Part shown: in pieces, positions 7,499 through 49,607 of the stretch
How positions within the stretch are numbered: the first letter of the stretch is position 1
Layout: each line of letters starts with the position of its first letter
Source of the DNA: a bacterium
Lineage (GTDB): Bacteria; Patescibacteriota; Minisyncoccia; Sungbacterales; SURF-37
Direction of reading: 5' to 3'
DNA: 64,000 bases
NCBI GenBank assembly: GCA_030648055.1
Contig: JAUSHI010000009.1
Span: 47,722-111,721 of the forward strand
Program-made: the position numbers and the translations under genes
The notes under the pieces: generated by a model
Seen by the model: the letters and a program-made list of their open reading frames with translations, nothing else
The model's database searches: none
What the model was told of the DNA's origin: nothing

Positions 7499-7505
7499 GG
7501 AGGGT

Positions 7506-9756: not shown

Positions 9757-9822
9757 GTAAGTCAAAGTCAGAGGAGAGTGATGATCTTTTCCAAAACAAA
9801 TCACCAACAGGAGGAAGTAGCG

Positions 9823-10221: not shown

Positions 10222-10244
10222 CTCAAACCCCTCTGATTCACCAA

Positions 10245-10272
10245 GGTCCGCCTCCTGACGGACCTTTTAAAT
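10245..10272 (+). terminator. Rho-independent terminator
   Basis: ggtccg-cctcctga-cggacc followed by ttttaaattt. Confidence 0.6.
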
Positions 10273-10538
10273 TTCATAAAGATGAAATAGTGCTGAAAGC
10301 TTATGCGATAAATGGCACCACCCCGCGTTTTCAAAGCCACGGTTTTTATGGATTTACGAGGCAAATACGTTGTACCTGAATATCCGATGCTGTTCTCATT
10401 TTGGTTATAATAATTTATATTGAGGATGCGGTGCGGTAGTGATTTTACTTGGAGAGGTAACAATTTTTGGGTAAAAAATTTAATCAATAATTCAAATTAG
10501 CTGACGAAATCGCGACACGCAAAGTTTGTTTGTAAAAT

Positions 10539-10991: not shown

Positions 10992-11027
10992 AAGTTAAAA
11001 GTAATATATCTAAAATTTATATTTTGT

Positions 11028-12047: not shown

Positions 12048-12102
12048 TATACCAAGATTATAGCGGGCCCGCGATGGGTTTTTTGGCATAGTGATGACTT
12101 TT

Positions 12103-13401
12103 CTATAGCGACTCATCAACATATGGAACAGTTTTGCCGTGGTTTGTAAGATTTGGCAGATAGCTCACAATTTTTATATCGGTTATAATATTACAGTCAT
12201 CTTTTAGTTGTCTTTTTAAAGATTCTAACTTGTTTGGCGGGACTTTTCCGTTGGCAATAATCCTTAATTCCAGGCGCCCGGATGTTATTCTGGCTAACTG
12301 GTATTGCACGATGAATCTGTCAAAATTATTTATTACGCCACTTATCTCAAGTAGCGTGATATGATTTTGACCGATATTAAGTGCGATTCCATCGCGGCCG
12401 TTGATAAAAAGCCTTTTTGACCGTACGCCGCAACGGCACCGTTTTTTCAGGATGACGCCGATATCACCTGTTTTATATCTGATGAAGGGCATAATCCGGT
12501 TATAAAAGTGAGTGAGCACTACATGGCCACTTTCTCCGTTAGCAACGGCACCCCCAGCATTATTAATTATTTCAACAATGAATGATTCCTCATTAATATG
12601 AAATCCTTTGTGCTCGGCGCATTCCATTCCAACCGGACCGAATTCCTCCAAACCGTACAGGTCATAGACACCCCCCTTGTTGCTCAGAATATTTTCAATA
12701 AAATATCGCTGGCCGTAAGATAAATTTTCTCCGTAAGATATTATGTAAGGAATTTTAATTGGTTGTACGCCAACACCAGCTTCTGCCATTGTACGCCCGA
12801 CCTCGGCCAATATCGTCGGAACACTTTCTAAAATAAAAGGCTGGAATGTTCCCAGCTTACTAATGACAGATCGGGCATTTTTTCTGACGTCCGAAACCGG
12901 AATAAATAAATAATTTTTTTTCAGCGGCATCGGCCGGAATCCTATGTGGGCGACTTTTAGCGCATCCATATTTTTATTGAATCCTTCCCAAAACAGAAAT
13001 CTGTATTTCGTAAAATCGTAATATCGTTTATCACCATAAACAGCGCTGACTAGGGTAATTGGGAACCGAAATGGTTCTCCAGTGGTGCCCGATGTCTGGC
13101 GCCATATGTATTTTCCTTGGTAATTCCAGTTTAGCAACAGGTTCCGGTCTTGCTGCTTTAGCGTTCTTTTGTCCATGATCGGGAGAATATCTATATCGTT
13201 GCGCGTTTTTATGCTGTCGGGATTTATTTTTGATTCTTTAAGTATGCGCGTGTAAAAAGGGACACCATCGTACGCAATTCCCAATAGTTTTTTTAGTTGA
13301 TGCGATTGCCACGCGTACACAATCGGCGAGGGGAGCTGATGTATAATGCTCCAGGCAGAAAATTTTATTTTGTTGTTTAAATTTTTTAGAAGCTGAATCA
13401 T
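12103..13401 (-). CDS. PaaK/CapK-like adenylate-forming enzyme (phenylacetate-CoA ligase / F390 synthetase family), paralog 1
   Basis: Adenylation motif TSGTTGEP and a length of about 430 aa. Confidence 0.75.
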   Translation of the reverse strand: MIQLLKNLNNKIKFSAWSIIHQLPSPIVYAWQSHQLKKLLGIAYDGVPFYTRILKESKINPDSIKTRNDIDILPIMDKRTLKQQDRNLLLNWNYQGKYIWRQTSGTTGEPFRFPITLVSAVYGDKRYYDFTKYRFLFWEGFNKNMDALKVAHIGFRPMPLKKNYLFIPVSDVRKNARSVISKLGTFQPFILESVPTILAEVGRTMAEAGVGVQPIKIPYIISYGENLSYGQRYFIENILSNKGGVYDLYGLEEFGPVGMECAEHKGFHINEESFIVEIINNAGGAVANGESGHVVLTHFYNRIMPFIRYKTGDIGVILKKRCRCGVRSKRLFINGRDGIALNIGQNHITLLEISGVINNFDRFIVQYQLARITSGRLELRIIANGKVPPNKLESLKRQLKDDCNIITDIKIVSYLPNLTNHGKTVPYVDESL

Positions 13402-13413
13402 GGAGGCCGTCGT

Positions 13414-14391
13414 TTAATTGTTGGTACTTGTCATGAGATTTAATATTTCCCGAATAAAATCTTCTTTTTGCGGAAGAGCGTACTTGCCGAAGCCATAAGG
13501 AATAGGAACATTTGCGGCCCCCAATTTTATAATTTTTATATCTGGACACGAACTCCGCGCGATATTTTCTATAATCGGGTAAAGTCCTCCTCCGGCCAGC
13601 GGTTCTTCGTCGGCAATAAGCAGCCTTTTTGTTTTACGGGAAGTTTCTTTTATTTTTTCTGTATCAAGGGGTTTAAGGCTGACTAAATCTAAGATTTCCA
13701 CATCTACGCCTTGTGTTTTCAGTTCGTCAGCGGCACTCTCCGCCATATCCGTCATTTGCGCGTGGGTTATTATTGTTACATCTTTGCCGGTTCTTCTGTA
13801 CTCTGCTTTTCCGGACGGGTATTTATAATCGGCATCGGTGGGTTGGCCTAATTTTTTATATAAACCCCAGTGTTCAAGAAAAATAATGACCTTACCCGTT
13901 GAAGTAAAGGCCGTGCGCAAAAGTCCTTGTGCCTGCTGCACTGTGCTCGGCGATATAATCACTACTCCAAGAAAATTAAAAAATTGGGAAATGAAAGGAA
14001 TGGAAAGTTGTCCGCCCACCTTGCCGCCCCCCCAACGCACTCTTATGATTGTTGATGGCATGGTTGTGCGCGTGCACATCATGCTCCATATTCCCGATAA
14101 GAAAATATCAGAAGCGGCAATGGTAATAAGCGTGCCGTGGGCAAACTCTACTATTGGACGAAGTCCCGCTTGCGCGGCCCCCAGAGCAATGCCTACAAAA
14201 AGCTCTTCATTGATAGGCGTTTCTCGTATTCGTTCTTCACCAAATTCATCAATGAATCCTTTGGTAATGCCGTCTCTTCCCCCCCATTTTCCTATGTCCT
14301 CTCCCATTATGAAAAGGCGAGAGTCCTTTCTCATCTCATCATGGAGGACTTCTTTGATTGCCTCGGATATTGTGATGTTATTTGTTGACAT
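13414..14391 (-). CDS. TPP-dependent dehydrogenase E1 component, beta subunit-like (transketolase-like C-terminal fold)
   Basis: E1-beta pattern (MGEDIGKWGG...ETPINEELFVGIALGAAQAGLRPIVEF) over 325 aa. Confidence 0.8.
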   Translation of the reverse strand: MSTNNITISEAIKEVLHDEMRKDSRLFIMGEDIGKWGGRDGITKGFIDEFGEERIRETPINEELFVGIALGAAQAGLRPIVEFAHGTLITIAASDIFLSGIWSMMCTRTTMPSTIIRVRWGGGKVGGQLSIPFISQFFNFLGVVIISPSTVQQAQGLLRTAFTSTGKVIIFLEHWGLYKKLGQPTDADYKYPSGKAEYRRTGKDVTIITHAQMTDMAESAADELKTQGVDVEILDLVSLKPLDTEKIKETSRKTKRLLIADEEPLAGGGLYPIIENIARSSCPDIKIIKLGAANVPIPYGFGKYALPQKEDFIREILNLMTSTNN

Positions 14392-38078: not shown

Positions 38079-38122
38079 TAGGGTAAGCGCAAAGTTCGTT
38101 GACATTTTAGGAGGGTCTGCAC

Positions 38123-39277
38123 ATGCATACGCTCTCGAGCGTTGCTCAATTCGTTGATTCTGATTTTGGTCCTGATCCTTATTTTGAGCGATACCTATCA
38201 CGCGGCCAGGTTTCGTGTACTAACCGGCACATTGAATACATGTTTCGCATCATGTGGCCGCTTTTGTCTTCGTATCGAAAGATCATTGTTGCGCAAAAAG
38301 CGTTCACTAGCTATACCGCTCTTGCTCCCGTGGCACCAGGTGACCGTGACGGCACATATATAGCTCCAGGCCACGTTCTCTTTGTGGATTTTCCTGGCAA
38401 AGGGAAGACTCTTCTTGGAAGTATTCCTGCTGTCGTGCTTGGCGGAAGGTTTACGCGGTTTCAGGGTGCGTTTGACAATTTGGCACCGGACTATCTTGGC
38501 CATAGGTATCCCGACTTCGATGCCAACGGGAAAAAGATATATAAACTTGAAGAAGGTCCCGCGTTTGGCGACATTCAGCTCATTGATGAGATTAATCGGA
38601 ATACGGAAAAGATGCAGGGGCATTTGCTTCCTGTTCTTGCCGAGGGGAAGATCATTCTTGCTGGTCAGATTTATCAGAGACAGCCCTTCGCGATCATGAC
38701 GATGAATCAGATTGAGAGCGAAGGCGTAAATCCTATTATCGAGGCGCTAGCCGACCGAATCATGTTTAAACTTCGCGGTGAGTGGTTTACTGCGAAGGAT
38801 TTTTCGGAAATTGGCGAGCGAAGCGCGCGTTTTGGAGAACTTAGGGGCGAGCTCAAACAGGTCTGCGACATATCCACCATTCATGAAATCCGCGAATTTG
38901 TATTGAAGCAGATTTACGTTGACCCCGATCTTCGTCAAAATCGAATGGGCCGTTTCGCAGAAATTTCCAATAACCCACAAAGGTTTGGTTATCTCGCGCA
39001 GTATTCAAAGCATCTTGATGGCGCGCCAATCTTAAAAAGCGGCTTATGGGGACGGGCGTTTACGCATTGGCTTGGGGCGGCACAAGCACTTGCCTTCTTT
39101 CGGTATCGTGATTATGTTCTTCCTGAAGACGCGAAAAAGGTGCTTCTGCCAATTATGCGTCATCGCGTCGTTTTTGCCCCAGGAGTAGTTCGTCGTCTTA
39201 AGAATGTCTTTGGGTATATTGATCAAGAAGAAACAATAGATCGAATTCTTTCTGATCTTATCAAGGAGGCCTTCTAA
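38123..39277 (+). CDS. MoxR-family AAA+ ATPase (with N-terminal extension)
   Basis: Walker A FPGKGKT, Walker B/sensor IQLIDEINRNTEKMQGHLLPVLAEG...PFAIMTMNQ (MoxR hallmark DEINR...ATQNP-like). Confidence 0.8.
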   Translation: MHTLSSVAQFVDSDFGPDPYFERYLSRGQVSCTNRHIEYMFRIMWPLLSSYRKIIVAQKAFTSYTALAPVAPGDRDGTYIAPGHVLFVDFPGKGKTLLGSIPAVVLGGRFTRFQGAFDNLAPDYLGHRYPDFDANGKKIYKLEEGPAFGDIQLIDEINRNTEKMQGHLLPVLAEGKIILAGQIYQRQPFAIMTMNQIESEGVNPIIEALADRIMFKLRGEWFTAKDFSEIGERSARFGELRGELKQVCDISTIHEIREFVLKQIYVDPDLRQNRMGRFAEISNNPQRFGYLAQYSKHLDGAPILKSGLWGRAFTHWLGAAQALAFFRYRDYVLPEDAKKVLLPIMRHRVVFAPGVVRRLKNVFGYIDQEETIDRILSDLIKEAF

Positions 39278-40167
39278 TGGATGCCTCTTTTTTTTCAGCT
39301 CGTCCCTCTGTTTCGTTGCGGCTTAAGATCGGGCGCGTACTTACGCAATTTCGTGGCGGCATTCATAAAAGTAGGGTCATTGGGGGAGGTCATGAGTTCA
39401 GGGGCTTTCGGCCCTGGAGTTCAGACGACAGTCCGTCACGGATCAACTATCCCGCATCATATAAACTTTCGCCCGATCTTGACGAAGTTGTTGTTCGGAC
39501 GTCATACGGAGAGAAACGAACTTCTGTTGTTGTTGTTTTTGATGCGCGCGCAACAATGCTGAGTCCGTCTCAAAAGATGGTGCACGCAGGAAGCCTTTTT
39601 TGGCTTTTTGCTCTTTCTGCTTTCCAGGCGCACGACCGATTCCGGGCGATGTTCATGTTAGATAGTGGGTTTGTGGATTCCGGGTGGGTATCAAAAGAAG
39701 ATAATCTCGCAGAGTTTCTTGACCAGGATATTTTGGGACGGAGAGCGAGTGCATTATTTCTTCGTGCAGAGAATCCTCTTTCGCTGCTTGTTGATGAGCG
39801 TACTCGCGATGCGTTTCTTATCGTGCTTTCTGACTTCTGTACTTCATGGGATAAAGAGATCACGGCGTTTTCATTGCTCGGCGCGCAGGAAAATAATATT
39901 CATGGCGCATTTCTCGCTATGGACGAGTGGGCTGGTTCGGTATCGCTTGGTTACAGCATGAATATTCGAGACCTTCGTACGGGTGTGTTTCATCGGATGA
40001 CCAGCGGTGATCTTGACGAGGCGGCACGAGCCGCATGTGAGTCGTATTTACGCTTTTCTCGAAAACTTGACCAACACTCCGCTTCGTTCATTAAAATTCC
40101 GCTCACGAATGACCCAATTGCTTCATTTTGCCGTGCCGCGCTTGGGTTTGAGCTTAAAATAGAATAA
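39277..40167 (+). CDS. DUF58-family protein (MoxR partner)
   Basis: GGGHEFRGFRPWSSDDSPSRINYPASYK...VVVVFDARATM matches the DUF58 core. Start overlaps the moxR stop. Confidence 0.7.
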   Translation: MDASFFSARPSVSLRLKIGRVLTQFRGGIHKSRVIGGGHEFRGFRPWSSDDSPSRINYPASYKLSPDLDEVVVRTSYGEKRTSVVVVFDARATMLSPSQKMVHAGSLFWLFALSAFQAHDRFRAMFMLDSGFVDSGWVSKEDNLAEFLDQDILGRRASALFLRAENPLSLLVDERTRDAFLIVLSDFCTSWDKEITAFSLLGAQENNIHGAFLAMDEWAGSVSLGYSMNIRDLRTGVFHRMTSGDLDEAARAACESYLRFSRKLDQHSASFIKIPLTNDPIASFCRAALGFELKIE

Positions 40168-40182
40168 GCAATCTTTTATATT

Positions 40183-40208
40183 CCGTACCCGATGGGTACG
40201 GTTTTTTC
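40183..40208 (+). terminator. Rho-independent terminator
   Basis: ccgtaccc-gat-gggtacgg followed by ttttttc. Confidence 0.6.
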
Positions 40209-40212
40209 TTTC

Positions 40213-40243
40213 TTGACAAGGGAGGGGCTTTACGTGGTATATA
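40213..40243 (+). promoter_or_regulatory. Putative promoter TTGACA-19-TATATA with an extended -10 (TGg)
   Basis: cTTGACAagggaggggctttacgTGgTATATAt lies 45 nt upstream of ORF 40287. Confidence 0.45.
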
Positions 40244-40286
40244 TTGTTTAAATAAGATCTTTGACATTTCTAAAAAGGAGAAACAC

Positions 40287-41894
40287 ATGAGACGACTGGT
40301 GCCTCTTTTGCTTCTTGCTTTCTTTTCCGTTCATCTTCCCGTCTTCGCCGCGGATGACAAACCCAAAAACAATATTTCCTGGCGTCTTCGTGATTTGTAT
40401 TACCATGATGCTAACGGCACGATAGTTCAGCTTGAGCTTGCTCGAAAGCTTTTGGTCCGATTTACCCGTGAAATATCCAATGAGGAAAAAACGGCTCTAC
40501 TCGCGGAATTTTCTCCTATTGCCCAGAAGGAACAGCCTGGTAATCCGTCTCGCATCGTTTTTTCGTTCAATGAATCCACTTCGCTGTCTGATATTCTTGA
40601 CGCGGCAAATAAAATTACTGCCTCTGGCAATGCCGAGGCGTCGCTGGTTTTCTTTGTTGATAATATCGAGGCGGTACTTGAAGGAGTTGTTATTGAACCC
40701 AAAATTGTTCTTACTCCAGATCGGCTTAAGGCCAGAATGCAAAAGTATGGCGGTTTCACGTTACGTCAGGCGGTCAGTGAAAACGGCTCTTGGATTTTTC
40801 TAATTGACGAGGTAAAGCCGCCGCTCAATCTTCTTGTGCTTACAAATCTTATCTCAAATGATATTTGGGTTCGGCGTGCATATCCGCGGTTTAAGTTCCT
40901 GCATGATCCAATCGTTGCTTCCATCAATGTGGAGCCGGTATCGGGGACAATAGGCGAGACGCGAACAATAATATTCACGGTCAAAATCTTTGATTCAGCA
41001 ATAACACTTTCAACAGAGTATCCCGAGTTTGGTGCCGGACTTTTTCGGCCGATTCAAGGGTCGCCGTCAAGCCCTTTAAGTATACGCCATGTGCCTGGGC
41101 ATCTTTTTGAGCTTGTTGGAGATCCGGTGAGGCATCCCGTAAAACAAGAGAAACGGAGCAGGGTGTATACGACATCATGGAAGTTCAAACACTACGCGGT
41201 CGGTGAATGGGTAATACACCCGCTGACTGTTCCTTATACCAAAAACGGGGTTGCTCAAGAGATCAAGTCATCAGGCTTTACGCTTGTGGTTAATTCACAG
41301 ATCGGTAATCTCAATATTACTGATATGCCAAATCCGCGCTCACTTATTTATTTTTCCGAGAAATCCGAGGCTCCTCCCATTGCCGCACTTCCGCCGGTTC
41401 CATCATATTGGTTTGACGCATGGACGTCGCATGCCGATATTATTGCGCGATACGCCGGGTTTGCCGGGATGTTACTCGGCACATTGCCGGTGGCAGGAGC
41501 AGCAGTACTTGTTGTCTGTGTGGTAAAAAGAAACAGAAAGAAGGCGCGTGAGCGTCGTTATAGGGTCAAGCACATTGAGGAGCTTTTGCAAGAAGCCTAC
41601 GCGAACCATTCATATGCTAAATATGATGAGGCGCTTTCCTTCATGTTTGCCGCACTTTTTCCCGATCTTCCCTTGCATCCTGCTTGGGAAGACGTCAAAA
41701 ATAATGACGGCGCTTGCGAAGTTTTTGGCGGTGAAACAATGGCGCATCTTGAAATGGTTTTCGGTAAACTCAGTCGGCGATACGCGAGTAACTTTACGCC
41801 TAGTACGGAAGACATCATGAAGCTTCACGAAAGTATGTGTAGTATCTTTGACACAGTGAAGCGGGTTCTAAAAATGGAAAAGGAGGTCCGGTGA
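40287..41894 (+). CDS. Exported protein with a C-terminal TM anchor and cytoplasmic tail, possibly BatD-like
   Basis: Signal peptide MRRLVPLLLLAFFSVHLPVFA, a large periplasmic region, then TM GFAGMLLGTLPVAGAAVLVVCVV followed by RK-rich residues. The BatD call rests mainly on position in the operon. Confidence 0.4.
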   Translation: MRRLVPLLLLAFFSVHLPVFAADDKPKNNISWRLRDLYYHDANGTIVQLELARKLLVRFTREISNEEKTALLAEFSPIAQKEQPGNPSRIVFSFNESTSLSDILDAANKITASGNAEASLVFFVDNIEAVLEGVVIEPKIVLTPDRLKARMQKYGGFTLRQAVSENGSWIFLIDEVKPPLNLLVLTNLISNDIWVRRAYPRFKFLHDPIVASINVEPVSGTIGETRTIIFTVKIFDSAITLSTEYPEFGAGLFRPIQGSPSSPLSIRHVPGHLFELVGDPVRHPVKQEKRSRVYTTSWKFKHYAVGEWVIHPLTVPYTKNGVAQEIKSSGFTLVVNSQIGNLNITDMPNPRSLIYFSEKSEAPPIAALPPVPSYWFDAWTSHADIIARYAGFAGMLLGTLPVAGAAVLVVCVVKRNRKKARERRYRVKHIEELLQEAYANHSYAKYDEALSFMFAALFPDLPLHPAWEDVKNNDGACEVFGGETMAHLEMVFGKLSRRYASNFTPSTEDIMKLHESMCSIFDTVKRVLKMEKEVR

Positions 41895-43102
41895 TGTTTG
41901 TGTCCCTGGTTTCGGGGCATCCATGGTGGTTACTTTTGCTCATTCCTATCGTAATCGGAGTTTTTACGCGAATTCCCTCAACATACATTTCCAAGGCGCA
42001 TTCTCATATTGCGCCTTTTTTTCTCATAGCGGGAACTCGATGGGGGAGGGCTTTACGATATATTGTCCATACTCTTCCTTCTTTTGTGAGCGTGCTTGTT
42101 TTGATATTAATCGTTGTGGCACTCGTTGATGTTACCAGGGGCTATGTCGTTGTAGTAGGACAAAAGATTTCCCAGCGCCTTATTGTCGCTCTTGACGTTT
42201 CAAGCTCGATGTATGGCTTTAGCACCAACCTTCCGACCGTAACTTGCCGGAAAAACTCTATGCTATTTCCGCGCATTCACGGATCTTGCCGCGCGCTTTA
42301 TCGCGTGGTGGACGATATTGAGAAGGAAACAAAAGATGAACTACGCCCGCGGATATTAATTGGTCTTATGCAGTGGGCATACAGATCGGCTGTTGTTTCG
42401 TATCCAACATCCGATTACAAGCGCTATCGTGAGAAAATCGATATGCTTGAATTCAGGTCGCATAACCTTGGTGCTTCTACGGGCATGCATGGAGCTCTTT
42501 GGGACATGTTTCTTATGTCGTTAGACAGGAACATGAAAAAGAATTCCGGATTTATGCATTTTTCCGGTAAAGATATGCAGGTGATTTACGCGTCGCTTGC
42601 GCCAGGACCAAAGGAATCATCATTATATCTTCCTAAGGATATAATGCAAAAAGTTGCCAAGGTTAAAGAAGAGATGCGGGATACGGTTTTTATTATACCG
42701 ACCGATGCGGTGGTTTCATATCTTGAGAGCCGTATGGACGGGCAACATCCTTCAATAAGGCGTCTTCTTCAACTTGCTGAAATTTTTGAGATTCCGGTTT
42801 ACTTCATCTCAACAGATGAAGATTATCCGGAACTTAAGCGTCTTGCGCGCCGCACAGGCTTCGGGCCTGCCGGCGGACTGCAACGCGGGGACTTCAAGAT
42901 TGTTCGGAAGGAAGGCGATGCCTATCTCATTGATGAGGTGATGAGCGGGGTTCTAAAATCTCGTTTCGGGCTTACGGTTCCCACATACGAAACACGCCGC
43001 GAATCGTATGCTGATCTCGCTCTTGAACTTGCATTGACATTTGCCCTCTTTGGGGTACTGTGGAAAAAGTTAGTGGTTCGCTCTTTGACAGATAGGGAAT
43101 AG
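41891..43102 (+). CDS. Membrane-anchored von Willebrand factor A (VWA) protein, BatA-like
   Basis: Two N-terminal TM helices, then the MIDAS motif LIVALDVSSSM. Confidence 0.7.
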   Translation: MMFVSLVSGHPWWLLLLIPIVIGVFTRIPSTYISKAHSHIAPFFLIAGTRWGRALRYIVHTLPSFVSVLVLILIVVALVDVTRGYVVVVGQKISQRLIVALDVSSSMYGFSTNLPTVTCRKNSMLFPRIHGSCRALYRVVDDIEKETKDELRPRILIGLMQWAYRSAVVSYPTSDYKRYREKIDMLEFRSHNLGASTGMHGALWDMFLMSLDRNMKKNSGFMHFSGKDMQVIYASLAPGPKESSLYLPKDIMQKVAKVKEEMRDTVFIIPTDAVVSYLESRMDGQHPSIRRLLQLAEIFEIPVYFISTDEDYPELKRLARRTGFGPAGGLQRGDFKIVRKEGDAYLIDEVMSGVLKSRFGLTVPTYETRRESYADLALELALTFALFGVLWKKLVVRSLTDRE

Positions 43103-43113
43103 GAGAGGGGACA

Positions 43114-43896
43114 ATGATGAAGAAATGGGTAACTCTTGGATTAGTTTTATTTTTTATCGCGCTTGCGCTAGTTGGGTTTTCCCGCTATGTGAGGGTGCGA
43201 CTTGACGAAAGGCGCGCTGTTGCTGAAACGCGTGCGCGCCTTGAGACAGAGGCGAAGCTTGTTTCAACCGATCGGGTTGAAAATATCATGACAAAGCTTG
43301 AAAAACTCAGGCGTCTTGAAGACATGGAAGAGTTTGCTGTCAAGAATATCGCGAGCCTCCCTCAAGGAGAGCGCACGGTCGTAGGGCCCGCGTTTCGAGT
43401 GAAACTTTTCGGAGCATATTTTCGCAGAGGAGAACTTCTCCTTGGCCGTGCCGGTGATCTTCTTCGGAAGGATGAGAACCATCCAACCGGAAAGGAGTAC
43501 ATTGAGCGCGCCCGGAAGATTTATGAGAAAATGGATAAGCTTATTGACGAAGGTGTCTCTGCACACTCCAAAGATGCGGAGGAAAATGCACGGCTTAACT
43601 ATTTGAAAGGTGTATATTATTTTCGCTCACTGGTTTTCATAACAGACGCGAAAGCCGAGGCGCCGCGCGTGGAAGAGCTTGTTGGCCTTTCCGCCAAACA
43701 TCTCTCGGCGGTATTCCAGTACAAACCAAAGGATCGCGATACAGAAGTTGCGCTTGAGATTCTTCAAAAGAAAGCGCAACAAATGGGCGCCGGCGGTGAT
43801 GGTTCCGGCAAAATGCAACTCGAACTTTTGCCTTCTCAAGGCAATAATCAGGGCCCGACCTTTTCAATCGAAGGGTCAGAGGGCGGAAGGCATTAA
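43114..43896 (+). CDS. Membrane-anchored helical/TPR-like protein, BatC-like
   Basis: N-terminal TM and a helical repeat region (RGELLLGRAGDLL...YLKGVYYF). Confidence 0.4.
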   Translation: MMKKWVTLGLVLFFIALALVGFSRYVRVRLDERRAVAETRARLETEAKLVSTDRVENIMTKLEKLRRLEDMEEFAVKNIASLPQGERTVVGPAFRVKLFGAYFRRGELLLGRAGDLLRKDENHPTGKEYIERARKIYEKMDKLIDEGVSAHSKDAEENARLNYLKGVYYFRSLVFITDAKAEAPRVEELVGLSAKHLSAVFQYKPKDRDTEVALEILQKKAQQMGAGGDGSGKMQLELLPSQGNNQGPTFSIEGSEGGRH

Positions 43897-43986
43897 GTTC
43901 ATGCAAAACACATTTCAGTTAAACGTCCCCTTACGGGGACTTTTCTTTTCCTGCAAGATCGGGTCAAAAGAAAGGAGGCACAAAAA

Positions 43987-45210
43987 ATGACAATGCATTT
44001 TCCATTAGCGTTTGACCTTGTGTTCCGTCATCCGTCACGGTTTTGGTGGGCATCTGTTTTCGCTTTAGTTTTTCTTCTTGTTTTATTGGAAGGACGAAAG
44101 AGGGCTGCAGCGTTTCAGCACCCATGGATAGCGCTTCACTCCTCGACGTCAAATCTTCCTAATTTTTTCGCGCGTTTGTGCTGGTGGACTTGTTGGACTG
44201 TTGCAACAATCCTTTTGGTGGCCGCGTACGCGAATCCCGAGAGGGTTTTTTATGACTGGGAGCGGGTATTTGAGCGAATTCGCATTTCGTTCATTCTCGA
44301 CATATCGCACTCAATGAAAAAAGCTGAAGATGTTTTACCAAATCGGCTTGAGGCGGAAAAAGGCGTTGTCCGGGATTTTGCCGCAAAGCTGGAACAAGAC
44401 AAAGAACTGAAAGGCAAATATTCTTTGGCGCTTATTCCGTTCTCCGGAGCCGCATTGCCTTACTATCTTCCGTTTACAACCTCGCGGGATGAGTTTCTTG
44501 CGCATCTTGATGCGATGGATACGGATACGGTCAATCGCAAAGGAACAAGTTTGTGGGCGGCGATTCGGGCTTTCGACGAACTGTTGCTTGCAAAGCCGGC
44601 GTCGGATAAAGGTACGGTGGATCTGGGCATTCTCATTTCTGACGGCGGCAAGGAAGAAGGGAAAAAGGAGCGCGCACTTATTCCGCGCACCATCGATGAA
44701 TTGCGCGATCCGTATCGGGCGCCGCGTCTTACGATGAGCGGAGAACGGGTTATAGTAAGAGCGAGAGAATCGCAGAGGAAGGTGGTATTAAATACAGTTG
44801 GAATTGGCAAGATTGAAATTAATGAAGGAAGGCGCGTACCATATCCCGCGCGTCTCATTAATCGCGATAAAGCCGGAAATTTCATGGGGTACGATCACGT
44901 GAAAGAAGATGATTCGAAAGGCCCCGTGCTTACCACTATGCTTGATGAGCAGATTCTTAGTGAGGTGGCTGTACGTGGCGGCGGGGTGTACCGGCATTTT
45001 TATGATCACGAAACCATACTGCAGGAGTTTAAGGCATTTGTGCTGGCAAATCGCGTCGAAGTTGATAAAATTCCTGTGCCGCGATATGAATCAGTGCGCG
45101 CGTGGTTCCTCGTCCCCGCATTTATAATGTATTATTTTCTCTTCGGTTATGGCGTATGGATGCTCCGCTTTTTTTCACGGATCTTAAGAGTGAATCGCCG
45201 AAGCTTCTAA
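43987..45210 (+). CDS. Membrane-anchored VWA protein, BatB-like
   Basis: N-terminal TM, MIDAS ISFILDISHSM and a C-terminal TM (AWFLVPAFIMYYFLFGYGVWML). Confidence 0.7.
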   Translation: MTMHFPLAFDLVFRHPSRFWWASVFALVFLLVLLEGRKRAAAFQHPWIALHSSTSNLPNFFARLCWWTCWTVATILLVAAYANPERVFYDWERVFERIRISFILDISHSMKKAEDVLPNRLEAEKGVVRDFAAKLEQDKELKGKYSLALIPFSGAALPYYLPFTTSRDEFLAHLDAMDTDTVNRKGTSLWAAIRAFDELLLAKPASDKGTVDLGILISDGGKEEGKKERALIPRTIDELRDPYRAPRLTMSGERVIVRARESQRKVVLNTVGIGKIEINEGRRVPYPARLINRDKAGNFMGYDHVKEDDSKGPVLTTMLDEQILSEVAVRGGGVYRHFYDHETILQEFKAFVLANRVEVDKIPVPRYESVRAWFLVPAFIMYYFLFGYGVWMLRFFSRILRVNRRSF

Positions 45211-45231
45211 GGATCACTTATAAAAATACTT

Positions 45232-45257
45232 AGCTACCCCATTGGGTAGCTTTTTTC
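45232..45257 (+). terminator. Rho-independent terminator
   Basis: agctacccc-at-tgggtagct followed by tttttt. Confidence 0.65.
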
Positions 45258-45264
45258 ATATGAT

Positions 45265-45294
45265 TTGACCGTGCGGTGATAGATGTGGTATTAC
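45265..45294 (+). promoter_or_regulatory. Putative promoter TTGACC-18-TATTAC with an extended -10 TG
   Basis: tTTGACCgtgcggtgatagatgTGgTATTAC. An SD aaggagg lies 8 nt before the ATG at 45329. Confidence 0.5.
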
Positions 45295-45328
45295 AAAGCA
45301 AGTTCCTTGAAATATAAAGGAGGGGAAA

Positions 45329-46366
45329 ATGTATATAAGGGCGATTTTTGTTATCACGGCTCTTTTTTGTGGCTCATTTGGTATTTTTTCTTTCGCCGTA
45401 GCGAATGAAGAGCTTTGCAATTCTGTATGCAAGAAAATGCAGGAGATCAAGGAAAGAAGTAATAATGTGGTACTCATTTATGCGTTCGGTTCAAAAGGCG
45501 CTTCAAGCGGTACTGGTACAGTTATATCGACGGCTGAGGGCAATACATATATTCTTACGAATAACCATGTGGTTGAGGGGGCCTCATCCGGCCGTGTGTG
45601 GGTGGTTTTCGAAAGTGGAAAGAAAGAAGAGGTCGCGGTTATAGGACGGGATCCCGCGGCAGATCTTGCTCTCCTTCAGTCCCCAGAGCTTCCTCCGGGC
45701 GCGACACCGGTTATTTTCGGCAGAGAACTTAAAATAGGGCAGCAGGTATACGCGCTTGGATATCCTTTTGGCATGCGGAGTGTGACCTTTGGTTATATCA
45801 ACGCGCTTGAGCCGACTCTTACCTGGCCTTTTATTTGGACGCAAACGCCCATAAATCCTGGAAATTCCGGCGGTCCGCTCTTTAATGAGAAACGGGAGAT
45901 GGTGGGTGTAAATACCGCAGTTGTTCCAGTGAATATCGCGGTCGGGGGCGGTATCAGTTTGGTGATACCCATTGACCATGTGAAGCGGCTTTTACCACGC
46001 CTTACTCTGGAGCGTGTTGTGCGTCATGGCGTTGTCGGATTTGAGCTTGATGATTCAGCGCGAATACTACCAGTTTTTTTTGATAAATACGGTCTTCGCT
46101 ATCCTCCAGAACGTGAAGGGATTATGGTGACGGTTGTTGTGCCAGGTTTGCCCGCCGCACAGGCGAACATTAAAGTTGGTGATATTGTCCTTAAATGGAA
46201 GGGTGTCTCTTTTAGAAAAGCGCTTGATTTGAAGGCAAAGATTTTCTTTGACCATCGTCCGGGTGAAGAGGTTACCATTACTCTCCAGCGGGACGGTCAA
46301 ATATTTGAGCGCCGCGTTTTACTCTCTGAACACACGCGTCCCAAGGCAGAGGAAGGGACTCAATAG
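45329..46366 (+). CDS. htrA: HtrA/DegP-family trypsin-like serine protease with a C-terminal PDZ domain
   Basis: Catalytic His (ILTNNHVV), Ser (GNSGGPLFN), a PDZ-like C-terminus and an N-terminal TM/signal segment. Confidence 0.8.
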   Translation: MYIRAIFVITALFCGSFGIFSFAVANEELCNSVCKKMQEIKERSNNVVLIYAFGSKGASSGTGTVISTAEGNTYILTNNHVVEGASSGRVWVVFESGKKEEVAVIGRDPAADLALLQSPELPPGATPVIFGRELKIGQQVYALGYPFGMRSVTFGYINALEPTLTWPFIWTQTPINPGNSGGPLFNEKREMVGVNTAVVPVNIAVGGGISLVIPIDHVKRLLPRLTLERVVRHGVVGFELDDSARILPVFFDKYGLRYPPEREGIMVTVVVPGLPAAQANIKVGDIVLKWKGVSFRKALDLKAKIFFDHRPGEEVTITLQRDGQIFERRVLLSEHTRPKAEEGTQ

Positions 46367-46382
46367 TATAAATAGCCAAATG

Positions 46383-46418
46383 ATACGGCCCAAGGGGGCC
46401 GTATTTTATTTTTATTTT
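46383..46418 (+). terminator. Rho-independent terminator
   Basis: atacggccc-aag-ggggccgtat followed by tttatttttatttt. Confidence 0.65.
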
Positions 46419-46589: not shown

Positions 46590-48071
46590 ATGATCGCTTT
46601 GGCGCGGAAAACATGGCATCGTTTTTTTGGTGACTTCAGGGCCAGATACATTCCGCTTCTTATGGTGTATTTTGCTTACGGAGCAGCCGGCTTCTCGGCT
46701 ATTGCCGAGAGCTTTTGGGTCAAGGAACAGCTTTCTCTTTCAGCTCGAGACCTTGCCGTTATCGGTTTTTGGGTTGGCATTCCCTGGACCGTCAAGATGG
46801 TTTTTGGACAGTTTGCCGATAGCATTTCTATTTTCGGGTCGCGCCGAAAAATTTATATTTTTGCGGGCGCGGGCCTTATTGCGCTTGGTCAGGCGATTCT
46901 AATCGGGCTTGCGGCGGGATGGCCGCTAGTGAAACAGTTTGGAATGCCGGAGAATCTATTTTTTCTTGCCGCGGTTGTTTCCGTGGTCGGCTTCGTCTTG
47001 CAGGACGTCATTGCCGATACGATGAGTACCGAAGTTGTTGACCGGGTGAATCTCGATGGCACTCCTCGGCCACAAGAAGAAGTTGATTCCGATCTCGCTC
47101 AGGTTCAATGGCTCGGCCGGATCGCACTCATAGTGGCCGGTGTTTTGGTCTCCGGTATCGGCGGCTGGCTGGCCCAAGTGACGAGCTATACCACGATGTT
47201 CACACTTGCTCTCTTTGTTCCGGTGATTTCTATGACTGGAGCCGTGTTTATCCGCGTGAATCAAGCGCCACAGAGCCCGGTTAACTGGTGGGTTCTCGGT
47301 GGCGGGCTTCTCTTTGGTGTCTTTGTAGTCGGCATTAAGTTTTCCGGCCTTCCGCTTGCCGAAGAGATCGTCTTTGCCGCATCTCTGGGGACTCTCATTT
47401 TTTTGATCTCCAGGATTGGCATTTCTCGGGCCTTGGCTTTTGCGGCAATCACTTTATTTCTTTTCCGCGCGACTCCGGGCGCGGGGCCGGGTGTTGGTTG
47501 GTGGACGATTGATGTTTTGGGATTTGATAAGGCCTTTCAGGGGACGCTCCAGCAGATCGGGTCAATCCTTACTCTTGCCGGCCTCTTTTTGTTCCGAAAG
47601 TATATTATTGAGAAGCCCATTGGGTTTACTCTTGCTTGGCTTACGGTGGCGGGCGCGATAGTTTCGCTTCCGACCATTGGTCTTTTTTACAGCATTCACG
47701 AGATGATCGGCGTCTCGGCGCGCACCATAGCGCTCGTTGATACTACGATTGCCTCACCTCTTGGCCAGCTTTCCATGGTGCCGCTTCTTACCCTTACTGC
47801 GAGGACTTGCCCTAAGGGTAATGCGGGTACATGGTTTGCTTTGATGGCATCACTAATGAATTTAGCATTATCCGCAAGTCAGCTCGGGACAAAGTATTTA
47901 AACACCGCTTGGGTAGTGACGCGCGAAGTGCGTAATGCTTCGGGCTCGGTGGTTACCGCGGCTGATTATTCAAATGTCGGCGTGCTCCTCATCACCACGT
48001 GGGTGATCGGGCTTGTCGTGCCGCTTTTCACTATTTGGTTCTTTCTCCGGAGAAGTAGTTCTTCCGGCTAA
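46590..48071 (+). CDS. BT1-family folate-biopterin transporter (MFS)
   Basis: Twelve predicted TM segments. IPWTVKMVFGQFADSISIFGSRRK matches the BT1 signature. Confidence 0.6.
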   Translation: MIALARKTWHRFFGDFRARYIPLLMVYFAYGAAGFSAIAESFWVKEQLSLSARDLAVIGFWVGIPWTVKMVFGQFADSISIFGSRRKIYIFAGAGLIALGQAILIGLAAGWPLVKQFGMPENLFFLAAVVSVVGFVLQDVIADTMSTEVVDRVNLDGTPRPQEEVDSDLAQVQWLGRIALIVAGVLVSGIGGWLAQVTSYTTMFTLALFVPVISMTGAVFIRVNQAPQSPVNWWVLGGGLLFGVFVVGIKFSGLPLAEEIVFAASLGTLIFLISRIGISRALAFAAITLFLFRATPGAGPGVGWWTIDVLGFDKAFQGTLQQIGSILTLAGLFLFRKYIIEKPIGFTLAWLTVAGAIVSLPTIGLFYSIHEMIGVSARTIALVDTTIASPLGQLSMVPLLTLTARTCPKGNAGTWFALMASLMNLALSASQLGTKYLNTAWVVTREVRNASGSVVTAADYSNVGVLLITTWVIGLVVPLFTIWFFLRRSSSSG

Positions 48072-48098
48072 CAGACGGGAAATCCCGTCTGTTTTTTC
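48071..48098 (+). terminator. Rho-independent terminator
   Basis: acagacggg-aaat-cccgtctgt followed by tttttc. Confidence 0.7.
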
Positions 48099-48124
48099 AT
48101 TGTTTGCCTTCGACGTGTCGTCGG

Positions 48125-48265
48125 AGTTGCAAACAATAGAACCCAGCCCTCTAAGCCATTGAATTACTTTGCTTCTTTGACTAAAAGCCCTTCACTTATA
48201 TTTATAAATGACACTTATTCGAACAGCATAGAGGGCTGGGTGAAGGTTTTGTAACCAAAATTTGG
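48125..48265. mobile_element. Family B MITE-like element, copy I (diverged outer TIRs; core TIR CCCAGCCCTCTA...TAGAGGGCTGGG)
   Basis: Core 48142..48240. The flanking sequence resembles the family consensus TIR extension. Confidence 0.65.
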
Positions 48266-48380
48266 AACAAATTTTGGACAAAGCCCTTCATTTGACTCAA
48301 TTATTTTTATGTAGTACAGCTAAATATATAGCAGGTTCGTTTAAAACCTCTACGGAGGAAATAAGAAAAGGAGAAAGCTC

Positions 48381-49607
48381 ATGAAACTTCATTGGGTTTT
48401 CGTTATCGTTTTTGCGTTTCTTGTCGTTTCTCTTGGTACGGTTATGGCGCCGGTTACGGTCCATTCGGCGGAGCCTACTGGCGAAGAGGTAAACACTATC
48501 AAGGCAGAGATGATGACGTTCGCTGAAATTCTTTACTACTACGCCACAGAAGCGCTTGAAAAGCCCGCGGACCTCAAGGCCTGTGCCTATGAGATGCTTC
48601 GCATGAAGCCCGCGGAGCAGAAGAGTTGCCGTGACAAGTATTCGGTTTGGTATCCGAAGGAAGAGGTTGAAATGGTTGAGGCAGACATGGAGGGAAAGTT
48701 TGGCGGCATCGGCGCGGAGCTTACTGACAAGGACGGAAAAGTTGTGGTCGTGGCTCCCATTGACGGCACGCCGGCATTTCGCGCAGGTTTGAAGCCCGGG
48801 GACGAAATTCTTGAAGTTGATGGCGTTAAGGTTGAGAGTGTGTCTGGTGCGGTAAAGCGCGTTCGCGGGAAGATCGGAACATCAGTTGAGATAAAAGTTA
48901 GGCGCGATGGGAAGAACGACACGATCGTTTTCACAATCGTTCGTGCCGAGATCGTCATTCAGGCGGTTGAGATGAAAGTGCTTCACGGCGCGAATGGAGA
49001 GGCGGGGTATCTTCGCGTGAAGACCTTCAGCGAAGTGATGCCCGATGAGTTTCACAAAGAGATGACGAAACTTCGTGATTCCGGTATTACCAAGGTTGTT
49101 CTTGATTTTCGTGGTAATCCCGGTGGGTTTCTTAATGTAGCATTAGATATTCTTTACGATTTTGCGCGTGAAAGCGATACTTTGATGGTCATGCGCGAGC
49201 GCGATGAGGAAACGGTGTTTGATGCTCTGTCTGTGGGGCGCGCGGTTTTGAAAACCGAGCGCAAACGCACACATGGAATGTTTCTCGGTATGGCGGTTGT
49301 GATTCTCGTGAACAAAGGGAGCGCTTCTGCCTCGGAGGTCTTCGCCGGGACCATGAAGGATTGGGGGTATCCGGTGATTGGCACGAATACTTTCGGCAAG
49401 GGGATTGGACAAACGCATCTTCCGCTTTCCGATGGTTCGGTTTTGAGTCTGACCACTTTTGAGTTCCTGGTCGGCAACTCCAGGACTAAGATTCACGGCA
49501 TCGGTGTTATTCCGACTCATAGTGTTGTCGGGCCGAGGCCAGCCACTTCCGAAATTCTTCGTGAAGACAAACAGCTTGAAAAAGCGCTTGAATTGCTTTT
49601 CAAGTAA
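48381..49607 (+). CDS. ctpA: S41-family C-terminal processing peptidase with PDZ domain
   Basis: Signal peptide, PDZ (GIGAELTDKDGKVVVVAPIDGTPAFRAGLKPGDEIL), S41 motifs VLDFRGNPGGFL and GSASASE. Confidence 0.8.
   Translation: MKLHWVFVIVFAFLVVSLGTVMAPVTVHSAEPTGEEVNTIKAEMMTFAEILYYYATEALEKPADLKACAYEMLRMKPAEQKSCRDKYSVWYPKEEVEMVEADMEGKFGGIGAELTDKDGKVVVVAPIDGTPAFRAGLKPGDEILEVDGVKVESVSGAVKRVRGKIGTSVEIKVRRDGKNDTIVFTIVRAEIVIQAVEMKVLHGANGEAGYLRVKTFSEVMPDEFHKEMTKLRDSGITKVVLDFRGNPGGFLNVALDILYDFARESDTLMVMRERDEETVFDALSVGRAVLKTERKRTHGMFLGMAVVILVNKGSASASEVFAGTMKDWGYPVIGTNTFGKGIGQTHLPLSDGSVLSLTTFEFLVGNSRTKIHGIGVIPTHSVVGPRPATSEILREDKQLEKALELLFK

Follow-up and report, generated by a model that had tools for sequence, protein, structure and literature searches.

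A six-gene MoxR-DUF58-VWA cassette of probable Bat-like type, predicted to form two transcription units, in a Parcubacteria-like bacterium

What kind of system is encoded by the run of MoxR, VWA and HtrA genes found in a tiny-genome, Parcubacteria-like bacterium, and is it the Bat operon it was first taken for? Seven plus-strand ORFs occupy positions 38123-46366 of the window (the whole 64,000-nt stretch of DNA analysed), where the first-pass annotation had placed them, as checked in the sequence; the motifs it quoted (DEINR, GGGHEFRGFRPW and the two DxSxS motifs, which read DVSSS and DISHS) were all found in the ORF translations. To our knowledge, Bat systems are without established biochemistry. 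The first six genes, g1 to g6, very probably constitute a highly diverged Bat-like MoxR-DUF58-VWA variant. The block exceeds chance, and its six genes are collinear in related and distant loci: five Parcubacteria-type loci and four more distant ones. Collinearity holds in 10 loci, and L011 has both units swapped as blocks. The window cassette sits inside conserved housekeeping synteny, with neither mobility genes nor a composition shift; the neighbouring relA-topA-dprA...pth synteny is also conserved.

The cassette proteins

When the window proteins alone were considered, only MoxR, g6 and HtrA passed curated family thresholds (Pfam/NCBIfam), and none of BatA_N (PF07584), BatC/TPR, BatD and BatE was detected among the cassette proteins. 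Two of the six, g3 and g5, have no recognised family, which leaves room for another logic of assembly.

The first gene (g1, 38123..39277, 384 aa) is predicted to encode a catalytically intact, cytoplasmic MoxR-type (MRP-like) AAA+ ATPase, as first proposed: it matched AAA_3 (74.7 bits, 8e-21, cut-off 27), AAA_lid_2 (44.2 bits, 1.6e-11) and PDB 2r44 (6.9e-25), and Walker A K95, Walker B D155/E156, N195, R212, R311 and R346-H347-R348 are invariant relative to canonical MoxRs. Alignment with the latter also confirmed a clade-specific N-terminal extension (about 45 aa, motif DPxFGxDPYF); an insert precedes Walker A. The g1 stop and the start of g2 (39277..40167, 296 aa) share 1 nt. The g2 product is a DUF58 protein, i.e. 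a VWA-like cytoplasmic MoxR partner, with a degenerate MIDAS of its own (D-A-R-A-T). The window protein itself had no match in a Pfam search; orthologues exceeded the DUF58 cut-off of 23.4 (54.4, 29.7 and 60.6 bits) and a six-orthologue profile aligned with canonical DUF58 over its full length (hhalign 98.6%, E 9.5e-16), so that the initial DUF58 call is borne out at the profile level only.

The membrane VWA proteins are the paralogues g4 (41894..43102, 402 aa; 403 aa if the GTG at 41891 is the start), which is divergent and BatA-like, and g6 (43987..45210, 407 aa), which is BatA/BatB-like. The likelier g4 start, ATG 41894, overlaps the g3 stop as TGATG. The prediction for both is an extracytoplasmic VWA domain flanked by two TM helices on its N-terminal side and one on its C-terminal side; g4 ends in a conserved cytosolic tail, RSLTDRE, of the pattern R-x-Phi-T-[DE]. 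Against VWA_2, g6 scored 34.6 bits (cut-off 27), the window g4 only 14.1 and a phage g4 orthologue 29.0; by hhalign, g4 aligned with canonical BatA (80.8%, E 1.3e-5) and with g6 (80.2%). The g6 protein matched BatB_Lepto (9.2e-13, under its cut-off), and its profile matched PDB 4jdu, an 'aerotolerance-related membrane protein' (8e-13), and 3ibs, BatB (1.9e-12). The MIDAS residues (D102/S104/S106/T197/D272 in g4, D105/S107/S109/T187/D219 in g6) align with those of canonical BatA/BatB. Conservation of this site had been named beforehand as a test of the claim of two membrane VWA proteins with a MIDAS: the full DxSxS...T...D was found in both at 10 of 10 related loci. From the TM layout, hydropathy, the positive-inside rule and Borrelia BB0173, we infer that the VWA domains of g4 and g6 lie outside and the g3 tail inside; in excerpts of PMC5700661, the VWA domain of BB0173 is periplasmic by experiment, in agreement with the topology predicted here.

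The 535-aa product of g3 (40287..41894) had been called BatD-like, a label that is not supported as a family assignment: PF13584 was unmatched, hhalign probability was at most 10%, and g3 stands third in the operon versus last for BatD in a canonical operon (L006). It is a bitopic membrane protein of an orphan family (only 87 cluster representatives in a set of 1.84 billion proteins), with no match in Pfam and NCBIfam searches. A signal peptide is followed by two alpha/beta domains (~38-205) and an Ig-like beta-sandwich (~209-336); hydropathy and flanking charges predict that residues 395-413 form a TM helix and that the 120-aa helical domain after it (414-535) is cytosolic. Its AF2 model (pLDDT 78.8) gave generic RRM and Ig-like matches only in PDB and BFVD. 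The sole sequence link from g3 to the canonical Bat operon, a weak one, is the alignment of its tail with X, the third gene of L006 (E 5.8e-4, probability 29%).

The remaining protein, g5 (43114..43896, 260 aa), from an orphan family of 28 proteins, models as a membrane-anchored alpha-solenoid, in which an N-terminal TM helix precedes alpha-alpha repeats. The AF2 model is all helical (pLDDT 85.8, pTM 0.74), its best PDB matches being 14-3-3 proteins (E 0.04, TM 0.32-0.38). The former TPR-like label fits loosely, in the sense of an all-alpha solenoid, and fails as a family assignment: the Pfam search, TPR HMMs included, returned no match. The signs of its membrane orientation are ambiguous: the N-terminal MKK favours N-in, whereas in the canonical BatB-TPR fusion the TPR is on the cytosolic side.

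Two predicted transcription units

Because a conserved hairpin plus T-run and then a TTGACA follow the DUF58 gene, the cassette is predicted to split into a motor unit (MoxR-DUF58) and a membrane unit (the four genes g3-g6). The terminator-like hairpin directly 3' of g2 (40183..40201; like all features below, on the plus strand) has an 8-bp stem with 6 G-C pairs, followed by T7, and has equivalents in L001, L002, L003 and L004. The promoter-like site beyond it (40213..40243) is made of TTGACA (40213-40218), a 19-nt spacer and an extended -10, TGgTATATA (40235-40243). It was read directly from the sequence, since the 19-nt spacer caused the consensus scan to miss it; the TTGACA is at the same place in L001-L004 and is thus conserved in five loci. 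The promoter first proposed at 40213 has its counterpart in this site, which would drive the membrane unit. The terminator proposed at 45232 also has its counterpart, a terminator-like hairpin and T-run (45232..45251) that ends this unit, with equivalents in L001, L002 and L004.

Three hairpins that the first-pass annotation lacked are as good as the one at 45232-45251: that at 40183-40201, one with a T-run between g5 and g6 (43925..43940) and one with a T-run 3' of the HtrA gene (46382-46405). The g5-g6 hairpin is possibly an internal attenuator; it has equivalents in L002 and L004, and the two genes abut in L001 and L003. Over the region, terminator-like sites were enriched (23 versus 12.4 ± 3.6 in shuffles) and promoter-like sites were not (14 versus 11.8 ± 3.6).

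Distribution, mechanism and alternatives

The cassette pattern was found in 3 of the 185,579 species representatives scanned. A collinear six-gene cassette is also carried by a 595-kb GenBank huge phage and by a related 634-kb phage-like contig, and its neighbours vary by locus: they may be housekeeping genes, genes for phage replication or a capsid module. The rarity of the cassette and its presence in huge phages argue that it is accessory rather than indispensable; together with the 87 representatives of the g3 family, they contradict the idea that a minimal genome 'cannot dispense with' the system. In Leptospira, deletion of batABD left growth rate and morphology unaffected (PMC3557215).

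The best overall explanation, which we regard as reasonably probable, is a two-unit Bat-like variant whose MoxR/DUF58 motor acts on a membrane VWA complex. MoxR-family ATPases generally work with VWA proteins, in target remodelling or metal insertion (excerpts of PMC13036017), and the MRP subfamily is defined by its DUF58 neighbour (PMC12067865). How the motor might engage cytosolic handles and remodel the VWA complex can be sketched only tentatively. Unit 1 would provide a cytoplasmic motor, the MoxR ATPase translationally coupled to its VWA-fold DUF58 adaptor, and unit 2 four membrane proteins: g4 and g6 with outward MIDAS-VWA domains, the bitopic g3 and the membrane-anchored solenoid g5. 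A MoxR hexamer, with DUF58 as adaptor, would grip the membrane complex by two handles, the tail domain of g3 and the conserved C-terminus of g4, and would then use ATP hydrolysis to drive assembly or a conformational switch of the outward-facing, metal-dependent VWA complex. The domain identities, the conserved MIDAS sites and gene order, and the constant position of the hairpin and TTGACA are seen in the sequences themselves; which proteins touch, what the substrate is and what the system does for the cell are our inferences.

A role in surface recognition or adhesion is unlikely. In this reading, the Ig-like ectodomain of g3 would join the outward MIDAS-VWA domains in binding a ligand on another cell or particle (matrix, a phage receptor or, for an episymbiont, its host cell), with affinity set from inside by the cytosolic MoxR/DUF58 motor, as in integrin inside-out activation. 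The MIDAS sites are indeed intact and invariant in both paralogues, their VWA domains are predicted to be extracytoplasmic, huge phages carry the cassette, and the Borrelia VWA protein BB0172 is reported as integrin-binding (excerpts of PMC5700661). MoxR retains ~73% of its self bit score in the group of the phages and L008, versus 11-13% for g3 and 25-35% for g6, which is the pattern expected of exposed, fast-evolving recognition proteins but may also reflect relaxed constraint; within the Parcubacteria group, the six proteins have diverged at much the same pace. Neither a ligand nor adhesin-type repeats were found, and there is no evidence of an episymbiont lifestyle in the host organism.

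It is quite improbable that the cassette serves a single enzyme as its dedicated chaperone, for maturation or metal insertion, with the membrane proteins as scaffolds. This is the best-established MoxR-VWA biochemistry, e.g. NorQ/NorD with nitric oxide reductase and CbbQ/CbbO with Rubisco (excerpts of PMC13036017 and PMC9976466), and DUF58 is a cytosolic VWA-fold protein; but its MIDAS is the degenerate one, the intact sites face outward, and no client enzyme candidate is conserved beside the cassette.

The seventh gene (g7, 45329..46366, 345 aa) encodes a membrane-anchored HtrA/DegS-like serine protease. Matches to Trypsin_2 (99.3 bits) and PDZ_2 (43.8 bits) uphold the original protease-PDZ identification, with a single PDZ domain; degP_htrA_DO was matched at 1.8e-50, under the equivalog cut-off, and the translation contains H (NNHV), D (DLAL) and S (GNSGGP). 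The promoter of its own that had been claimed also agrees with our data: a promoter-like site is present, and a terminator-like hairpin separates HtrA from g6. Judging from the sequence, HtrA is a separately transcribed neighbour, limited to this clade and outside the cassette elsewhere: the gene after g6 encodes it in the window, L001, L002 and L004, and no HtrA gene adjoins the cassette in L005, L008, L010, L011 and L012. That it belongs to an envelope quality control system, in which a MoxR-driven complex presents misfolded exported proteins to the protease, is likewise quite improbable, for all the other proteases nearby: a second trypsin-like gene after HtrA in L001 and L002, an S41 PDZ peptidase 2 kb beyond HtrA in the window, an S49/NfeD protease after the cassette in L011 and a trypsin-like gene 3 kb upstream in L008. 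Besides the separate transcription signals and the lack of adjacency in L005, L010 and L012, the HtrA position looks like an inherited neighbourhood, because the relA-topA-dprA...pth synteny is conserved too.

The phage-borne cassettes and the link of MoxR-vWA systems to biological conflict (PMC7159879 and PMC12067865) could point to a vWA-MoxR-type system for defence against phages or for conflict between elements, or else to a module of phage origin for superinfection exclusion or takeover. This is nevertheless the least credible reading, as PADLOC models were unmatched by MoxR, DUF58, g3, g5 and g6, matched g4 at a marginal, chance level and HtrA through a generic trypsin domain only, the cassette has no effector domain, and its housekeeping setting in the window shows no sign of mobility.

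Comparison with known systems

The two-unit Bat-like variant that we favour was compared with a canonical Bat/MRP-subfamily operon (L006, MoxR-DUF58-X-BatA-BatB/TPR-BatD); the literature offers Borrelia BB0170-BB0176 and the Leptospira bat cluster as examples (PMC5700661 and PMC3557215). In both the cassette and the canonical operon, the MoxR and DUF58 genes stand at the 5' end, the third gene encodes a bitopic membrane protein, two VWA paralogues share the same membrane layout with outward MIDAS-VWA domains, and a helical-repeat partner (here g5) is present. The gene order, said earlier to match Bat operons, differs from that of L006, and BatC, BatD and BatE are not demonstrably present. Unlike canonical Bat, the cassette lacks BatA_N, TPR and BatD Pfam signatures, BatE and a separate BatD gene at its end; g3 is enlarged to 535 aa by two alpha/beta domains and an Ig-like domain, the helical protein lies between the two VWA genes, MoxR is extended at its N-terminus and carries an insert, DUF58 has a degenerate MIDAS, and a conserved terminator and promoter divide the genes into two units.

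The mycobacterial moxR1-DUF58-membrane VWA operon and the bifidobacterial PFNA cluster (MoxR-DUF58-transglutaminase) share with the cassette a MoxR-DUF58 dyad and membrane proteins with large extracytoplasmic domains, adjoined by envelope-acting enzymes (PMC12067865). They have one VWA protein or a transglutaminase, versus two VWA paralogues, g3 and g5 here, and their kinase and FN3 have no equivalent in the cassette. An AAA+ MoxR hexamer with a VWA-fold partner is also common to NorQ/NorD, CbbQ/CbbO and RavA/ViaA, the only pairs with solved MoxR biochemistry (excerpts of PMC13036017, PMC9976466, PMC4660213 and PMC3893208). Their VWA partners are soluble and cytosolic and act on a defined enzyme, whereas the cassette has no evident client and its intact MIDAS domains are predicted to lie on the outer side of the membrane. 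Finally, the huge-phage cassette is, like the MoxR-vWA pairs of jumbo phages and archaeal viruses, a virus-encoded MoxR plus vWA; those pairs are two-gene, cytosolic, with a vWA-metallopeptidase fusion and a proposed role in virion assembly (PMC7824862), whereas the huge-phage cassette has six genes, is of the membrane type and is collinear with its bacterial counterpart.

Gene layout and proposed expression units

The seven plus-strand ORFs described in the first-pass annotation were all found in the sequence at the positions proposed, together with the motifs quoted for them: MoxR (g1, 38123-39277), DUF58 (g2, 39277-40167), an orphan protein (g3, 40287-41894), a membrane VWA protein (g4, 41894-43102), a second orphan (g5, 43114-43896), a second membrane VWA protein (g6, 43987-45210) and HtrA (g7, 45329-46366); g1 to g6 are referred to below as the cassette. 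One-base overlaps (TGATG) link g1 to g2 and g3 to g4, which suggests translational coupling. For g4, the ATG at 41894 appears a likelier start than the GTG at 41891: the ORF starting at the GTG was missing from the protein collection, and the orthologue in L001, one of five related Parcubacteria-type loci (L001-L005), was called at the equivalent ATG.

The promoter that had been proposed could be read in the sequence (TTGACA at 40213-40218, a 19-nt spacer, then TGgTATATA), as could the terminator, a hairpin with a T-run at 45232-45251. Three further intergenic hairpins followed by T-runs had been overlooked: one directly 3' of DUF58 (40183-40201), one in the g5/g6 gap (43925-43940) and one 3' of HtrA (46382-46405). 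Terminator-like sites were over-represented (23 versus 12.4 ± 3.6) and promoter-like sites showed no enrichment in the same scan. The comparison across L001-L004 is a stronger test than site enrichment. In these four loci g2 is followed, at equivalent positions, by a G+C-rich hairpin with a T-run and then by TTGACA; another hairpin is found 3' of g6 in L001, L002 and L004. Since these signals are kept, the cassette is best divided into a g1-g2 unit and a g3-g6 unit, HtrA being separate from both. This two-module reading fits, and is supported by, the distant small-genome locus L011 (10001-17186), where the blocks are swapped and g3-g4-g5-g6 (VWA) precede MoxR-DUF58.

One repeat was observed beside these signals. 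The 9-mer TTGACATTT is present at 38099-38107 and at 40261-40269, i.e. 16-18 nt 5' of the g1 and g3 starts and in both cases immediately 5' of the ribosome-binding site; the distance to the starts is too small for it to be a -35 element of these genes. In L003 the same 9-mer also makes up a promoter-like hexamer 3' of g2. The repeat could be a common regulatory site, or it could be there by chance.

The MoxR-DUF58 pair and the membrane VWA proteins

The identification of g1 as a MoxR ATPase stood up well when checked against Pfam: both AAA_3 (PF07726, 74.7 bits for a gathering score of 27) and AAA_lid_2 (44.2 versus 22.7) were passed, and the closest solved structure was the MoxR protein 2r44 (6.9e-25). 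When aligned with canonical MoxRs, the catalytic residues K95 (Walker A), D155/E156 (Walker B), N195 (sensor 1), R212 (arginine finger) and R311 (sensor 2) were found to be invariant. The lineage-specific N-terminal extension that had been pointed out is real: it is about 45 residues long, carries a conserved DPxFGxDPYF motif and is specific to the clade, which also has an insert ahead of Walker A. According to Snider and Houry, as cited in PMC12067865, the MRP subfamily is defined by an adjacent DUF58 gene, and here the DUF58 gene g2 overlaps the stop codon of g1.

The DUF58 assignment held through the orthologues of g2 but not through its own Pfam score. The g2 sequence gave no Pfam match even at E ≤ 10 and thus missed the gathering score of PF01882 (23.4), which the orthologues of L002, L005 and the phage passed with 54.4, 29.7 and 60.6 bits; a profile of six orthologues aligned full-length with canonical DUF58 (hhalign 98.6%, E 9.5e-16, 269 columns). 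Canonical DUF58 proteins have DxSxS at the MIDAS, whereas in g2 the site is degenerate (residues 89-93, 39541-39555: D-A-R-A-T, with D-x-R-D-T as the clade consensus). As a consequence, the system has just two intact MIDAS sites, in g4 and g6, both predicted to face outward.

Of the two VWA proteins, g6 is the easier to place: it passed VWA_2 (34.6 bits for a cut-off of 27), and its profile retrieved from the PDB the VWA structures of Bacteroides BatA/BatB, 4jdu (8e-13) and 3ibs (1.9e-12). Far more diverged, g4 scored 14.1 by itself, below the VWA_2 cut-off, and its profile found nothing under E 0.1 among PDB sequences; in hhalign it reached 80.8% against canonical BatA and about 80% against g6, and its huge-phage orthologue passed VWA_2 (29.0 bits). 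No match to BatA_N (PF07584) was found in either protein, and the NCBIfam cut-offs were missed by a wide margin (48 bits versus 350 for BatB_Lepto, 18-35 versus 380 for BatA_Lepto). As had been claimed for both proteins, the MIDAS is kept: the full set (DxSxS, Thr, Asp) is invariant in 10 of the 10 loci for both paralogues, and it aligns with that of canonical BatA/BatB. A lack of MIDAS conservation, named beforehand as an argument against the Bat-like assignment, was therefore not seen.

Hydropathy and flanking charges of g4 and g6 fit an arrangement in which two N-terminal TM helices are followed by an outside VWA domain and a C-terminal TM helix. Together with the experimental topology of Borrelia BB0173, whose VWA domain is periplasmic (PMC5700661), these features place, by prediction, the VWA domains of g4 and g6 and the ectodomain of g3 outside the membrane, and the tails of all three proteins (C-terminal in g4 and g6) on its inner side. 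The g4 tail (last seven codons, 43079-43099) carries the motif R-x-[LFIY]-T-[DEQG] two to three residues from the C-terminus, and this motif is kept in all groups from Parcubacteria to phage (RSLTDRE, ARSFTQD, NRDITDLK, NRRYTEV), which makes the tail a candidate docking peptide, with either the motor or the g5 solenoid as its possible partner. A separate feature of g4 is an insert, specific to the clade, that separates the first MIDAS loop from the helix after it (residues ~120-133, 42248-42290). Two cysteines lie in this insert (ITC…GxCRAL), one of them (C133) being invariant in six loci, and an extracytoplasmic disulfide between the two is conceivable.

The orphan proteins and the HtrA neighbour

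The 535-aa product of g3 had been described as BatD-like. It matched no Pfam or NCBIfam model, and its family comprises 22 proteins in a word-indexed search and 87 cluster representatives (E ≤ 1e-3) in an exhaustive profile search of 1.84 billion proteins. In the AF2 model (pLDDT 78.8) the signal peptide is followed by two alpha/beta domains, then by an Ig-like sandwich and a disordered linker; the model and hydropathy then give a TM helix (395-413), a stretch with 10 Lys/Arg in 15 residues and a helical domain of 120 residues. Foldseek against the PDB and BFVD returned at most generic RRM-like, Ig-like or DUF11-like matches (TM < 0.4), and the g3 profile found nothing under E 0.1 among PDB sequences.

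As a family assignment, the BatD label had to be dropped. No match to the BatD HMM (PF13584) was obtained, and hhalign against the BatD of L006, a canonical Bat operon, gave probabilities of 1.1% and 10%; that reference is a genuine BatD (PF13584 at 4.8e-28). One in 38 distant g3 relatives reached PF13584 (9.7e-4), and a wider superfamily profile (94 sequences) was weak against both BatD and X, the unnamed third gene of L006 (probability 10-14%). The best of these weak links is between X, which itself weakly matches DUF4381, and g3 residues 332-524 (E 5.8e-4, probability 29%), a stretch that takes in the last part of the Ig-like domain and, beyond it, the TM helix and tail. Position also speaks against BatD: g3 is the third cassette gene (ten loci, with the units swapped in L011), whereas BatD is the last gene in L006 and in locus L007. 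What g3 does have is the BatD-type layout (signal peptide, beta-sandwich ectodomain, TM helix, cytosolic tail), which is also that of X and, from inspection of the sequence, of canonical BatD. Thus g3 has the general layout of BatD and X alike, but the third-gene position of X, and does not belong to the BatD family on these comparisons. Profile comparison revealed no relation of g3 to the DUF4381 protein or the TPR protein of L007.

For g5 (260 aa), the TPR-like label is acceptable as a loose description of the fold but not as a family name. No family matched, and no TPR family did so even at E ≤ 10; among 28 homologues there was no match to TPR or to any other family. The AF2 model (pLDDT 85.8, pTM 0.74) is all helical, with a long N-terminal TM helix and then an alpha-solenoid, for which the best PDB fold matches were 14-3-3 proteins (E 0.04, TM 0.32-0.38); the g5 profile found nothing under E 0.1 among PDB sequences.

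The HtrA identity of g7 was confirmed (Trypsin_2, 99.3 bits; PDZ_2, 43.8 bits): it is an HtrA/DegS-like protease that has one PDZ domain and is anchored at its N-terminus, the His/Asp/Ser motifs being NNHV, DLAL and GNSGGP in the translation, and it reached no NCBIfam equivalog cut-off. An HtrA gene 3' of g6 is confined to the Parcubacteria clade, where it is seen in the window, in L001 and L002 and, with an intervening ORF, in L004; beside the cassette it is absent in L005, L010 and L012. HtrA is best taken to be a conserved neighbour. Further envelope proteases are loosely near the cassette: the window has an S41 peptidase, L011 an S49/NfeD membrane protease gene 3' of MoxR-DUF58, and L008 a trypsin-like gene.

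Distribution and possible meaning

The proteins of the region correspond, exactly or within the same 90%-identity cluster, to NCBI MAG proteins MDO8561029-MDO8561035 (locus tags Q7R91_023xx, 245-kb contig), named by PGAP as MoxR family ATPase, DUF58 domain-containing, hypothetical, hypothetical, VWA domain-containing and trypsin-like peptidase; the MAGs holding relatives are labelled Parcubacteria group or Candidatus Sungbacteria. Housekeeping genes flank the cassette on both sides: relA/spoT, topA and dprA upstream, and downstream mfd and pth together with genes for a BT1 transporter and an S41 PDZ peptidase. No composition shift was found across the cassette region, and Rfam and tRNA scans of the window gave a single tRNA-Leu, far from the locus. 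That the window itself is a huge phage was rejected because it carries relA/spoT, topA, dprA, mfd and pth and because of the synteny with other Parcubacteria MAGs, hisS, rpsU and ybeY included. The BT1 (folate/biopterin-type MFS) and S41 (C-terminal-processing) genes lie 3' of HtrA at 46590-49607, so that two PDZ proteases are found less than 4 kb from the cassette; in L004 a BT1 gene is likewise near, on the opposite side.

The six genes are collinear in L001-L005. More distant g3 relatives led to the same cassette in L008, L010 and L012. L008 is an 82-kb contig with glutamate dehydrogenase, thiolase and FadB-like genes; judged by gene content, the sole basis for the taxonomy of L008, L010 and L011, it is probably from a larger-genome bacterium. 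In L010, a phage-like contig of 633,754 bp, genes for a T4-type major head protein (phrog_138, 3.9e-80) and for a prohead protease (phrog_207, 1.3e-48) lie 3.4 kb upstream of the cassette (8108-14370). L012 is the "uncultured phage" LR756511.1 (595,163 bp), whose head protein shares 78% identity with the L010 one; in its segment 380581-399789, at 7047-13149, MoxR, DUF58, g3-like, g4-like VWA, g5-like and VWA genes are collinear between a family-A DNA polymerase and a DnaB-like helicase. Among 50,697 phage records no other had a g3 relative, and a scan of IMG/VR with P0134 gave no relative.

In the L008/phage group (L008, L010, L012) about 73% of the self bit score is kept by MoxR, 25-35% by g6 and 11-13% by g3, and the rates of divergence are similar for all components in the Parcubacteria group; the exposed parts may be fast-evolving in the phage-associated group. 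The cassette is rare: a pattern-limited scan of 185,579 species representatives gave 3 loci. This rarity and the presence in huge phages contradict the earlier argument that the system is indispensable in a minimal genome. In a literature search on MoxR in Patescibacteria/CPR, MoxR was not mentioned by the 15 top-ranked papers.

From the above, the main call of the first-pass annotation stands, in that the core is a Bat-like MoxR system of the MRP type; the gene order, said to match Bat operons, is not the canonical one. The cassette anatomy, taken with known MoxR-VWA pairs (PMC13036017), points to a cytosolic MoxR-DUF58 motor that would act on a membrane complex of four proteins through its cytosolic handles, the metal-dependent VWA domains of this complex facing outward. 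As to its purpose, an assignment to vWA-MoxR conflict or anti-phage defence was not supported, as no defence-system model matched and no effector domain was found: PADLOC gave nothing for MoxR, DUF58, g3, g5 and g6, a single marginal match for g4 (Cmr1, E 0.0048) and generic protease-domain matches only for HtrA. No conserved client enzyme was found near the cassette. A bolder proposal, which we hold to be improbable, is that the cassette forms a mobile machine for surface recognition, powered by ATP, which huge phages, their hosts and ultra-small Parcubacteria exchange with one another. If this were true, MoxR/DUF58 would act from the cytosol to switch the two outward-facing MIDAS-VWA domains and the Ig-like ectodomain, a prokaryotic counterpart of the inside-out activation of integrins; the machine would serve phages in remodelling or re-targeting the surface of the cells they infect, and episymbionts in holding on to their partners. 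By function, a Bat system is defined by a contribution to aerotolerance or to survival of oxidative stress; the present organism is uncultured, and even in Leptospira deletion of batABD left growth rate and morphology unaffected (PMC3557215).

By itself the finding reveals no new mechanism. Its cassette occurs in three very different genomic settings (Parcubacteria, the probable larger-genome bacterium and huge phages), a breadth that gives comparative leverage for separating the motor, the scaffold and the exposed, fast-evolving parts. As the phage copies show, the module is able to function away from its native genome, so that its reconstitution in a heterologous host is plausible. Bat/MRP-type MoxR systems are widespread and, to our knowledge, their biochemistry is unsolved; among them this variant is compact and well delimited, with two orphan families (g3 and g5), invariant MIDAS sites and clear candidates for the cytosolic handles, namely the tail domain of g3 and, in g4, the conserved C-terminal tail.
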